Below are positions 23,744-49,585 of a stretch of DNA of 64,000 nt, in pieces; position 1 is the stretch's first letter; the number at the start of each line of letters is the position of its first letter. The position numbers and the translations under genes were made by a program. The notes under the pieces are model-generated. The model was not told the DNA's origin, did no database searches, and saw only the letters and a list, made by a program, of their open reading frames with translations. The stretch is taken from positions 32,001 to 96,000 of the forward strand of contig CAXXJS010000050.1 in assembly GCA_963662665.2 (NCBI GenBank), written 5' to 3'. The stretch comes from Candidatus Latescibacterota bacterium. GTDB lineage: Bacteria; Latescibacterota; UBA2968; GCA-2709665.

Positions 23744-24478
23744 ATGTCACACGTGAGTGACAGAATGAATCTATTGCGAAAATGCGGAGCGGAATTCCTG
23801 GGCGCGTTCGCCATCGTGCTGGGCGGTTGCGGCGCCGTTGCCGTCAACCAGATCAGCGGCGGGGCAGTCTCTCACGTGGGTATTGCCACGTCGTTCGGGC
23901 TCATTGTGATGACGATGGTTTACGCCACCGGCCACATCTCCGGGGCGCACTTCAATCCCGCCGTTACGATCGCCTTCTCCTTTACGCGACACTTTCCCAA
24001 ACGGGAGATCGCGCCGTACATTGCCGCCCAATGCATGGGCGCCGTCCTGGCCAGCTGCATCCACCTCGTCACCCTGTCTCCCGTCCTGAATGCCAGCCTT
24101 CCCGGACAGGAACTCGATCTGGGTGTCACCCAGCCTCTGGACGGCGCGTGGACCACGGCCTTCGTATGGGAGTTCCTGCTCGCCTTCCTGCTGATGGTTG
24201 TAATTATGGCGGTTGCCACGGACTACCGCGCTACAGGTCAGGCCGCCGGCCTTGCGATCGGCGGCACGATCTGGTTCGAAGCCATGTTCGCCGGCCCCGT
24301 TTGCGGGGCATCCATGAATCCCGCTCGCAGCCTGGGCCCGGCCCTTGTTTCCGGCAACTGGCTGCATTTTTCAGCCTATGCGGCGGGTCCTGTGCTTGGC
24401 GCGTTTGCCGGCGCGCTTTACTACGAATTTATCAGGTGCCATCGGGACGGGGGGGCGGAAGTCAAGGGCTGCTGCTAA
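23744..24478 (+). CDS. MIP family channel (aquaporin/aquaglyceroporin, NIP-like)
   Basis: ISGAHFNPAVT and GASMNPARS motifs, six TM helices; ends in GCC. Confidence 0.93.
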   Translation: MSHVSDRMNLLRKCGAEFLGAFAIVLGGCGAVAVNQISGGAVSHVGIATSFGLIVMTMVYATGHISGAHFNPAVTIAFSFTRHFPKREIAPYIAAQCMGAVLASCIHLVTLSPVLNASLPGQELDLGVTQPLDGAWTTAFVWEFLLAFLLMVVIMAVATDYRATGQAAGLAIGGTIWFEAMFAGPVCGASMNPARSLGPALVSGNWLHFSAYAAGPVLGAFAGALYYEFIRCHRDGGAEVKGCC

Positions 24479-25425
24479 CCTTGATTCGCAAGTGCGCCGT
24501 GAAAAGGCGCGGAACTTCAGTGGGTGAGAGTCCCACCCGACAGATGTTGCCACAGTCGGAAGCAATCGGAGCGGAGACGTAGGTAACGACATCTCCGAAG
24601 CCTCCGGTGTAGAGGGTCGCCAGGCGACTCGGCGAGTATGTGGGCTGAAACGTGAGTAAACGCTGAGCAGGCCTCGAAAAGGGTAATGCGGGAGCCGACC
24701 CGGCTTGCGAACGGGGAAGGCCGCCGTCGTTGGGGAAGCAGGCAACGAGAGCACCCAACGGTCCCGCCGGGGTAATGGCGGAGGCACGCATACAAGGAGA
24801 TCCGACGCAACACGGGAAGCCCCAGCGGTGGTGGAGAGCCACCAACCGGAAGCCCGTGAGGGCCAGGCCGGGCCGTATGGGGTGGCGGACAGGCTCGTAG
24901 TACCTGTGATGCCGGGTAACGCCGGCGGAGGAAAGGGGCCTGACTTCGGATGTGCTTGTGAAGGGGACAACTGTCGGGAGAGTGGCGCAAGCCTATAACC
25001 TCCTCCAGAATAAGACGAGGCGACTCCAGATCAAGCTAAGGTTTCAGGTGAAGCTGTCCGGGCAGATCGGGCAGTGTGTACCTGAAGGCGATGTCCGTCG
25101 GAGAGCCGGATGCGGTAACTCCGCACGTCCGGTTCGACGAGCGGGATGTGGAAACGGAGCAGGGAGGGGCTATTGAGGCACCGCCAGACGAAAGGGGCGG
25201 GAACAGACAGGCCACTCCTAAACCACCGCGCCACATCTCGACTCTACTTCTTCGGGGAAGTAAAACCGAATATTTGCAAGTAGATAAAGGCGATTTAACT
25301 TCTGATTACCAGGATACACCAGGTCACTGGACGTGGACTGAAAAAACGTCCTTTTTGACGACCGTTACGGCCAGCTTCAAGGGTTTTCGTCGCGTTGCCG
25401 AGTTGCTGTTTTTTTCACATTGAGG
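24479..25425. mobile_element. MITE-A copy 1 (191 bp without the intron), interrupted by a group II intron
   Basis: CTAA direct repeats at 24475-24478 and 25426-25429; 13 + 178 = 191 bp, colinear with 49203-49393; imperfect 13-bp TIRs CCTTGATTCGCAA / revcomp CCTCAATGTGAAA. Confidence 0.85.
24492..25247 (+). ncRNA. ORF-less group II intron (756 nt)
   Basis: 5' GTGCG; domain V GAGCCGGATGCGGTAACTCCGCACGTCCGGTTC (25103-25135, AGC triad, GNRA loop); domain VI ending CTCGACTCTAC; EBS1 TTGCGAA (24705-24711) pairs with exon TTCGCAA; boundaries confirmed by the empty-site copy. Confidence 0.93.
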
Positions 25426-25457
25426 CTAATGCCTGCCTGTGCGTCACTCGATCCTGA

Positions 25458-44979: not shown

Positions 44980-45077
44980 CCCTATTGAATGCGCCCGCGC
45001 ACGGACAGCGCCAGGGGTAGGGCCCCGACACGGCAGAATCCGGGTGCCGATAACCCGCAATCGGATTTATCGCAAGA

Positions 45078-45109
45078 GATAGCCCCGGTCTGATTCGACC
45101 GGGGCTATC
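45078..45109. terminator. Perfect 13-bp hairpin between convergent genes
   Basis: GATAGCCCCGGTC-TGATTC-GACCGGGGCTATC. Confidence 0.6.
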
Positions 45110-48956: not shown

Positions 48957-49202
48957 TTATACACAGAAATAAAATTCCTGTCAACGAATTGTCTTACATA
49001 GTTTGACAGGGTTAACAAGATATATTGGCATTTTGCCACGAGGCTCGAAATTTGGGTCGTTTATATTATCGGCTGAATCTGGTTTTTCCGGATGCTATAC
49101 TGACTATCCCGAGCATCCATGTTTCCCACGTCTTCACGCGGGCCGGTAGCCGAATGCTGGCGCGCGGCCAACCGCTACCGCCATTTGTGACAACACCACT
49201 AA

Positions 49203-49393
49203 CCTTGATTAGTAATTCTTCGGGGAAGTAAAACCGAATATATGCAAGTAGATAAAGGCGATTTGACTTCGGATTACCAGGATACACCAGGTCACTGGAC
49301 GTGAATTGAAAAAACGTCCTTTTTGACGACCGTTACGCCCCGTTTCAGGGGTTTTCGTCGCGTCGCCTTGTTGCTGTTTTTTTCGAATTGGGG
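49203..49393. mobile_element. MITE-A copy 2 (uninterrupted, 191 bp)
   Basis: CTAA at 49199-49202 and 49394-49397; about 91% ungapped identity to copy 1 by manual count; ends CCTTGATTAGTAA / revcomp CCCCAATTCGAAA. Confidence 0.87.
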
Positions 49394-49585
49394 CTAATCG
49401 CGCAGCCGGAACTTGATTTCGTCTACAGAAGCCGTCTCGAGGAACGATTCCAGTTCTTTCTTCAGGTTTTCCTTCGATTCGGCTATCGTGTTCCCCTGGC
49501 TCGCGATATCCAACTCTGGACAGAGCGCGACGTACCCTTCGCCGACTCGCTCAATAAATGCCGTCAACTGCCTTGCCATCACCAA
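49394..49585 (-). CDS. hicB: HicB family antitoxin-like protein
   Basis: IERVGEGYVALCPELDIASQGNTIAESKENL. Confidence 0.8.
   Translation of the reverse strand: MVMARQLTAFIERVGEGYVALCPELDIASQGNTIAESKENLKKELESFLETASVDEIKFRLRD

Follow-up and report, generated by a model that had tools for sequence, protein, structure and literature searches.

A 64,000-nucleotide stretch of a Candidatus Latescibacterota genome (positions 32,001 to 96,000 of contig CAXXJS010000050.1, assembly GCA_963662665.2; referred to below as the window) contains a group II intron that lacks an open reading frame (ORF) and lies inside the end of another mobile element, a miniature inverted-repeat transposable element (MITE). 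The explanation that best fits the observations as a whole, and one that we consider probable, is that this ORF-less intron retrohomes into the ends of the MITE and recognizes them by pairing its exon-binding sites (EBS1 and EBS2) with the corresponding intron-binding sites (IBS1 and IBS2) in the target. According to this explanation, the intron would have entered MITE copies one insertion at a time, with the same insertion point each time, 13 nt into the left terminal inverted repeat; EBS1 would read the last seven exon bases, and a short EBS2 would read the bases that span the target duplication and the start of the repeat. Only those MITE copies whose polymorphic bases -3 to -1, counted back from the insertion point, pair with EBS1 would be invaded, and the reverse transcriptase/maturase needed for splicing and mobility would be supplied in trans by three full-length relatives in the genome. 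The mechanism itself is known, and what we describe is a clean natural example of one mobile element living inside another.

The coordinates of the intron and its host are listed in Table 1. The intron begins with GTGCG (5' GUGYG), immediately after the exon bases TTCGCAA. The Rfam model of domain I (RF02003) matches it at 89.7 bits, well over the curated cut-off of 49. The model of domains V and VI (RF00029) matches positions 25101-25247 at 35.7 bits (E = 5.7e-5), which is under its cut-off of 40, and this match ends at 25247, where the intron reads ...CTAC. Excision of the intron in silico joins ...GATTCGCAA to TTCTTCGGGG..., and the junction in an empty MITE copy elsewhere in the window is ...GATTAGTAA followed by TTCTTCGGGG... 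at 49215/49216. Since the empty copy, an element at 49203-49393, has this same junction, the intron extends exactly from 24492 to 25247. The ORF list of the window copy contains no reverse-transcriptase ORF within the 756 nt. We identify the element as a non-autonomous (ORF-less) group II intron, which would be expected to splice.

Table 1. Features of the intron-bearing and empty MITE copies in the window
Feature	Positions	Strand	Remarks
Left target-site duplication CTAA	24475..24478	+	Recurs at 25426-25429; includes the TAA stop of the upstream ORF 23744-24478
IBS2 region	24476..24482	+	TAACCTT; best contiguous helix uses ACCTT 24478-24482; 2-nt linker (GA) before IBS1
MITE left inverted repeat, outer 13 nt	24479..24491	+	CCTTGATTCGCAA; end of the intron 5' exon; IBS1 TTCGCAA at 24485-24491
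ORF-less group II intron	24492..25247	+	756 nt, GTGCG to CTAC; from Rfam and empty-site comparison
Conserved domain I core	24518..24655	+	Rfam group-II-D1D4-4, RF02003
EBS2 loop	24679..24685	+	AAGGGTA within AAAAGGGTAATG; from covariation
EBS1 hairpin	24699..24715	+	Stem CCCG/CGGG, loop GCTTGCGAA; EBS1 TTGCGAA at 24705-24711
Domain IV filler replacing the reverse-transcriptase ORF	24942..25096	+	155 nt
Domain V	25103..25135	+	GAGCCGGATGCGG...CCGCACGTCCGGTTC; domain V helix aligned in the RF00029 match
Rest of host MITE copy (3' exon)	25248..25425	+	Ends in the right inverted repeat CACATTGAGG
Right target-site duplication CTAA	25426..25429	+
Empty MITE copy	49199..49397	+	CTAA 49199-49202, element 49203-49393 (191 bp), CTAA 49394-49397; IBS1 position TTAGTAA 49209-49215

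The occupied site is also found in public sequencing runs, of which six were identified, all providing DNA contigs and none on record as RNA. In each of the four runs examined, one of which may be the source of the assembly itself, a contig of 9.6-21.9 kb leads from the unique upstream DNA 10 nt into the intron without a single difference, and so the occupied junction is present in all four. No contig in these runs joins 24491 to 25248. The contigs break at repeats, and therefore, they provide neither a linkage between exon and EBS1 allele nor allele ratios.

The host element is 191 bp long, has no ORF and is present in many copies, in agreement with the size and copy number of a MITE. A search of the genome with nhmmer (66 contigs, 4.86 Mb; the assembly is 92% complete) gave 80 matches, 75 of which include the left end. 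The element is flanked by a 4-bp target duplication: the 4-nt flanks are the same on both sides in 33 of the 51 near-full copies and agree at three of the four bases in a further 12, compared to a mean of 11.3 and a maximum of 21 identical pairs in 1000 shuffles of the flanks. The identical flanks are CTAA (15 copies), TTAA (10) and TTCA (3), plus five others found once each. The terminal inverted repeats are imperfect, with the consensus CCTTGATTCG on the left and CGAATTGGGG on the right; once the right end is turned into its reverse complement, the two agree at seven of ten positions. Of 14 other genomes of the genus, 13 have the family, and all 16 genomes searched from other genera lack it. 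Taken together, the distribution, size, repeats and duplication indicate a genus-wide MITE. No Rfam family reaches its cut-off on the two window copies, and a scan of 49150-49450 gave no terminator-like hairpin, although such hairpins had been suspected by eye. An autonomous parent was not found among three solitary left-end-like sites (on contigs C26, C14 and C40) that lack a matching right end within 2.6 kb; the ORFs at these sites were listed, and transposase families were not searched for.

The intron bases that would select the target can be located with some precision. An earlier note on this DNA had picked out five short strings, TTCGCAA, TTGCGAA, AAGGGTA, TAACCTT and TTAGTAA, all of which are present at the positions given in Table 1, and had proposed that the loop TTGCGAA is EBS1. 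TTGCGAA is the exact reverse complement of TTCGCAA and would form seven Watson-Crick pairs with it; opposite TTAGTAA in the empty copy, it would form five Watson-Crick pairs, one G-T wobble and one mismatch. Taken alone, such a 7-mer match proves little: the intron has a single TTGCGAA in its 756 nt, and with 543 of 20,000 mononucleotide shuffles of the intron also containing it, the match is only mildly unlikely by chance.

Three other observations point to the same loop. The minimum-energy fold of intron bases 1-454 pairs CCCG (24699-24702) with CGGG (24712-24715) and leaves the 9-nt loop GCUUGCGAA. The loop also covaries with the exon. We collected 80 loci that encode relatives of the 441-amino-acid protein of the full-length introns (see below), located the 5' ends of their introns by nhmmer and built an alignment of 67 distinct sequences from their first 300 intron bases. 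In this alignment, the counterpart of 24703-24713 is a freely varying loop with conserved sequence on either side. For 45 distinct loops, the best 7-mer pairing with the last seven bases of their own exons averages 5.84 of 7 (with G-T counted as half), as opposed to 3.70 +/- 0.14, and at most 4.1, in 1000 shuffles of the exons among the introns. Finally, over the first 797 nt, the full-length copies on contigs C61 and C16 differ at only five bases, all of which are in this loop. We agree with the earlier note that TTGCGAA is to be regarded as EBS1.

Contigs from four public runs match the intron up to about 24702, continue as several divergent sequences through the EBS1 loop and resume at CGGGGAAGG. 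In one of the runs, a contig with the allele AATCGAA has a depth of 64, compared to 11.7 for the unique flank. The EBS1 loop is thus polymorphic on the same backbone in the sampled communities.

The earlier note had also offered, as a weaker call, a pairing of the candidate EBS2 AAGGGTA with TAACCTT. The loop was the right one: over 41 distinct loops, the best helix with exon bases -18 to -8 has a mean of 4.07, whereas shuffled pairs give 3.17 +/- 0.12 and none of 1000 shuffles is as high. The register is ambiguous, because the best contiguous helix of the window intron, AGGGT with ACCTT (four Watson-Crick pairs and one G-T), is one base off from the register first proposed, which pairs 6/7 with an internal mismatch. 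The note was correct that TAACCTT covers both the target duplication and the repeat: TAA comes from the duplication CTAA (24475-24478) and CCTT starts the inverted repeat, and the exon is in fact the duplication together with the MITE end. At the EBS2 loop, the full-length copies read AAAAAGGTAATG, and in C61, AAGGTAA pairs with TTACCTT at 7/7 positions. The overall layout is therefore an IBS2 at about -16 to -10, a 2-nt linker and then IBS1. Folding of the single sequence told us nothing about EBS2; GGGU is hidden within a small hairpin of the minimum-energy fold, and a 141-nt sub-fold is no better than shuffles (z = 0.21).

The MITE copies of this genome provide the main evidence on target choice. 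Among the 75 left ends, eight contain the ORF-less intron, one contains a full-length intron and 66 are empty (Table 2). The base at -3 is C in all eight of the occupied sites and in 14 of the 66 empty ones (Fisher one-sided p = 2.1e-5), while the exact sequence TTCGCAA is present in six of the eight and in 11 of the 66 (p = 0.0014). If only the 62 full-length elements are considered, the two values become p = 9.5e-5 and p = 0.0039. Because the MITE copies are related to each other, these p-values overstate the evidence.

Table 2. IBS1 sequences at 75 MITE left ends of the genome (the one left end with a full-length intron is not counted here)
IBS1	Occupied (ORF-less intron)	Empty
TTCGCAA	6	11
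TTCGCTA	2	1
TTCGCCA	0	2
TTCGTAA	0	12
TTCGTCA	0	7
TTCGAAA	0	6
TTCGTTA	0	4
20 other variants	0	23

This tabulation, which the earlier note had called for, bears on its proposal that polymorphism of the terminal repeat decides which copies are invaded. Occupancy is not independent of IBS1, and to that extent the proposal holds. However, a perfect match is frequently left empty: 11 such sites have no intron, and in seven of them the whole stretch from -17 to +10 is the same as in occupied sites. There is also one empty MITE copy whose body does not differ from that of an occupied one. These sites imply that a match is needed and that it is not sufficient. The link between target polymorphism and invasion is real, and pairing is necessary rather than decisive. 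Most of the matching copies are still empty, as would be expected if the burst was very recent and of low frequency. We considered replication-strand bias as a cause of the empty perfect sites and set it aside, in that the sign of the GC skew (+/-25 kb, relative to the site strand) is 4+/4- for occupied and 28+/38- for empty sites, a test that is weak on contigs. The earlier note also described the uninvaded window copy as having substitutions in IBS1, and here the polarity must be reversed: the consensus of the family reads T at -3, the variant targeted by the intron is the one with C, and only the A at -5 is private to that copy (one of the 75 sites).

Sister genomes of the genus display other alleles on the same target family (Table 3). 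Genus-wide, whenever a different MITE variant is invaded, the bases of EBS1 that face -3 and -2 differ as well. Intron lineages with different EBS1 alleles match different MITE variants, a divergence in target specificity on a target that is multi-copy and harmless. In one of these genomes (G003:C52, locus L090), the DNA just upstream of the intron GTGCG resembles the 3' end of another intron copy (...CCACATCCCTACTCTAC), which reflects either a tandem arrangement or an assembly collapse.

Table 3. EBS1 alleles and MITE targets in other genomes of the genus (empty sites were counted by a strict exact pattern, and the counts are lower bounds)
Genome	EBS1	Occupied sites	Empty sites
G009 (one contig; exon and EBS1 on the same contig)	TGACGAT	2 at TTCGTCA	12 of 17 are TTCGTCA
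G002	TGACGAT	1 at TTCGTCA	7 of 16 are TTCGTCA
G006	TTTCGAA	1 at TTCGAAA, bottom strand of the right repeat, 7/7
G003	TTACGAT (one readable intron)	4 at TTCGTAA, 1 at TTCGTAT	8, of which 1 TTCGTAA and 5 TTCGTCA

The genome contains two size classes of the intron. All eight ORF-less copies follow the 13th base of the MITE left repeat and are at least 99.87% identical. The three full-length copies (C61:80849-82823, C24:8271-10245 and C16:126157-124183) are 1975 nt each and share 95-96% identity with the short form in their ribozyme parts. All three encode an uninterrupted protein of 441 amino acids with RVT_1 (E = 2.7e-36) and GIIM (E = 2.4e-13) domains and no endonuclease domain, the closest relatives of which are in metagenome-assembled genomes of Latescibacterota. 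This protein would be the natural candidate to mobilize the ORF-less copies in trans. The C24 intron lies in the bottom strand of a MITE (C24:7970-10290), at an internal TTCGATT/TTAC site that mimics a left-end target, within a nest of at least two MITE copies. C16 is the only full-length intron outside of a MITE; a tRNA-Sec gene (RF01852, 73.6 bits; L003:2571-2664, minus strand) is located about 96 nt upstream of its 5' end. More distant relatives of the intron 5' region occur outside of MITE ends at C5:13735-13948 (78% identity), which also matches RF02003 (67.7 bits), and at C10:148815-148958 (70%).

Several observations do not fit easily with homing guided by EBS pairing and must be set against it. 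Two of the eight occupied sites (TTCGCTA) have a mismatch at -2, and 11 perfect sites are empty. The full-length copies also mismatch their own exons. C61 and C24, which are 1 nt apart, sit at TTCGATT and carry TTTTGGA (three Watson-Crick pairs and two G-T), and C16 sits at TTCGGAA and carries AATCGAA (four Watson-Crick pairs and one G-T); therefore, pairing does not fit every copy as assembled. The AATCGAA of C16 is the exact complement of the TTCGATT that precedes C61 and C24, and TTTTGGA pairs 7/7 with the TTCGGAA of C16 (four Watson-Crick and three G-T), so that both would pair fully if the alleles were swapped. Between the EBS1 allele cluster and the exon lie 211 nt, and the next variant site is 580 nt away from the cluster, distances at which mis-phasing of the full-length alleles in the metagenome assembly is plausible; the alternative would be gene conversion. 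The 155-nt filler of the short intron has no significant similarity to the full-length intron (the best blastn hit is 29 nt, E = 0.13), which leaves an origin by simple deletion from the resident full-length copies without support. The G003 contigs end after 36-55 nt of intron sequence, so that exon and EBS1 are not physically linked there, and the empty sites of the other genomes may be undercounted. Moreover, mobilization in trans, splicing, current activity and the recent burst as the reason for the empty matching sites are all deduced from DNA and should be read as predictions.

Could the eight insertions be a single one? If one MITE copy had been invaded once and the intron-bearing MITE had then transposed, the shared IBS1 would have been inherited rather than selected by pairing. 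The common insertion point and the nearly uniform IBS1 of the eight copies would agree with such a co-amplification, as would the fact that each occupied copy has its own flanks and a YTAA flank, just as transposed copies would have. However, the eight introns differ from each other at 0-2 positions (at most 0.26%), whereas the MITE bodies around them differ by 3.4-12.4%. In a maximum-likelihood tree of 63 MITE bodies, calculated with the target site itself left out, the eight occupied copies require seven changes, at least five of which are forced by well-supported branches; one of them, C23, belongs to a distinct subfamily where C at -3 is exceptional, and an occupied copy shares its body with an empty one, as noted above. 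Within the set of copies with C at -3, occupancy shows no more clustering in the tree than do labels assigned by shuffling. The near-identity of the introns, in hosts that are diverged and scattered, implies that they entered MITE copies singly after these had diverged and did not arrive by transposition of the MITE, and we regard co-amplification as highly improbable. We are just as reluctant to accept that the association of occupancy with IBS1 is an artefact of subfamily structure and small numbers, with the actual guidance coming from protein contacts or local transcription. There are just eight events, three of which fall in one well-supported clade of seven copies that all read CAA, and the relatedness of the copies inflates Fisher's test. 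However, intron-bearing sites with C at -3 occur at no fewer than five separately supported places in the tree, EBS1 and IBS1 covary over the 45 related introns, and in other genomes, three further EBS1 alleles are found at the MITE variants that match them, all of which makes an artefact very unlikely indeed.

A more elaborate possibility, raised in the earlier note as an escape from the intron, is that the polymorphism at -3 and -2 is the product of conflict. The insertion would disable a MITE copy, changes at the bases contacted by EBS1 would be favored, and the introns would respond through EBS1. In its fullest form, two non-autonomous parasites, an ORF-less retroelement and a transposase-less MITE, would be in a running conflict in which successive EBS1 waves swept different MITE variants within one genus, a scenario that we think doubtful. 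The waves would be represented by the TTCGAAA relics, by the full-length introns at TTCGATT and by the burst now seen at TTCGCAA. If this were true, each wave would disable the copies that it entered, invasion would shape which MITE variants remain mobile, and MITE diversification would drive EBS1 turnover. Several patterns are in keeping with a conflict. Element position 11 (IBS1 -3), which faces the middle of EBS1, is the most variable of the 191 columns, at 1.59 bits versus a mean of 0.37, and position 12 (-2) has 1.10 bits, while the mirror positions of the right repeat have 0.14 and 0.77. On the intron side, two full-length copies vary nowhere in their first 797 nt except in the EBS1 loop, the alleles of the genus differ exactly opposite -3 and -2, and the community contigs of four runs diverge at the loop (loose ends at 24702-24704) and rejoin after it. 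There are also relics of an older wave at two TTCGAAA sites. One is a 52-bp element at C23:45042 (about 45038-45093), with CTAA on both sides, in which a palindromic version of the intron 5' hairpin (its first ~21 nt) stands between a left repeat that ends in TTCGAAA and a right repeat; the element may be the remnant of recombination between two inverted introns in both repeats. The other, at C40:161333-161361, is an intron 5' stub in the bottom strand of the right repeat. An EBS1 that matches TTCGAAA is absent from the intact introns of this genome and is found once in G006.

Other facts speak against conflict. The consensus base at -3 is T, which is not what the intron reads, and the variation is carried by MITE copies that are 3-12% apart while the introns are at most 0.26% apart, so the variation predates the intron burst. 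The intron targets the locally commonest variant, both here (TTCGCAA in 17 of 75 sites, occupied ones included, versus 12 TTCGTAA) and in G009 (TTCGTCA in 12 of 17 empty sites plus the two occupied ones), which looks like retargeting by the intron and not like a MITE in flight. Position 11 is the first base past the 10-bp repeat core, and weak constraint therefore suffices to explain its variability. That an insertion stops transposition of the MITE is also an assumption of the scenario. Escape is thus unlikely and, for this burst, unsupported, and the explanation given at the outset, an ORF-less intron that homes into whichever MITE ends its EBS1 can pair with, is the one we prefer.

The affiliation of the intron with the known classes is less clear. 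Group IIC introns insert after a terminator hairpin or an attC site, have a short IBS1 and lack EBS2. The window intron is not of this type in view of its 7-bp IBS1, its covarying EBS2 and its target inside a transposon repeat. The nearest solved proteins are nonetheless IIC enzymes (6ar1, E = 1.1e-53; 7uim, E = 2.2e-50), a comparison in which classes D, E and F have no solved structure to be compared with. A plasmid search for relatives returned unnamed ltrA matches only, at 56-65% identity. The C-terminal signature of class D, LX3AX3PXLF[V/A]HW, as quoted in PMC4615759, is absent from the 441-amino-acid protein in a regular-expression search (its C-terminus reads ...TRLEAQTRNFPWANA), which leaves class D membership without support. 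The accessible portion of PMC3552965 contained no other class signature that could be tested.

The closest parallel in habit is RmInt2 of Sinorhizobium meliloti, a class D intron whose homing sites are in the inverted repeats of ISRm17 (PMC4615759, on which the comparisons with both RmInt2 and RmInt1 are based). Neither protein has an endonuclease domain, and both targets are inside a terminal inverted repeat. An IBS2 at -16 to -10 and a 2-nt linker at -9/-8 were found experimentally for RmInt2, and the same layout is seen here; the IBS2 selected by RmInt2, CTAGTTC, starts with a CTAG-type flank, where the MITE has CTAA or TTAA, and short or mismatched EBS2 pairing is tolerated. Both repeats can be used, and in our system, the right repeat is used in G006 and in the C23 and C40 relics. 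The differences are that the class D motif is missing here, that the host is a non-autonomous 191-bp MITE instead of a transposase-bearing insertion sequence (IS) and that the copy that has proliferated has no ORF. RmInt1 in ISRm2011-2 is likewise a high-copy, endonuclease-less intron with a multi-copy IS as its homing site, and target specificity diverges among its relatives. However, it inserts in the body of the IS, has IBS1 separated from IBS2 by a single-nucleotide linker and encodes its own protein; it also has a lagging-strand bias, of which the weak test mentioned above gave no sign here.

The proliferation of ORF-less copies resembles that of TeI3/TeI4 in Thermosynechococcus elongatus (PMC2882425), where ORF-less introns outnumber ORF-containing ones and are mobilized by the protein of a relative. 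In both cases, DNA target specificity has diverged, other mobile elements are preferred as targets and some IBS sequences are poorly matched. In contrast, the TeI3/TeI4 introns encode an endonuclease domain, and their ORF-less forms keep ORF remnants at shared deletion breakpoints, whereas here 155 nt without detectable similarity replace the ORF, and eight ORF-less copies share one EBS1 and one repeated target. A literature search at the level of listings found no description of a group II intron that homes into a MITE. The sections of PMC4853749 available to us describe group II introns and MITEs in one genome and report no nesting of the two.

The system amounts to a natural target-specificity experiment with its own controls: 75 near-identical targets that differ mainly at the bases read by EBS1, eight independent insertions and one allele, with the sister genomes providing other alleles. 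It is an in-the-wild parallel to plasmid mobility assays, in that a lone base change in the sequence facing EBS1 is accompanied by a lack of invasion even where a G-T wobble remains (0 of 12 TTCGTAA sites), and the majority of the perfectly matched sites are empty. With this case, the habit of homing into transposon ends also reaches a lineage that is uncultured and little studied, and a host element that is itself non-autonomous.

Two minor observations concern the surroundings of the insertion and its relatives. The left CTAA holds the stop codon of the upstream ORF, and thus, the MITE and its intron are located directly behind that gene and on the same strand; the gene product is presumably an aquaporin, judging from its NPA motifs. 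Among the related introns (loci L006-L085), many from other phyla have CTAA, CTAG, TTAG or TTAA at about -17 to -14 followed by CC. Such exons come from Planctomycetota, Gemmatimonadota, Acidobacteriota, Pseudomonadales, Opitutales and others, and several are at the center of a palindrome, e.g., CCTATTCA before and TGAATAGG after the insertion point. This pattern suggests that homing into transposon ends, about 13 nt in from flanking tetranucleotides of this kind, may be a habit of the entire clade.

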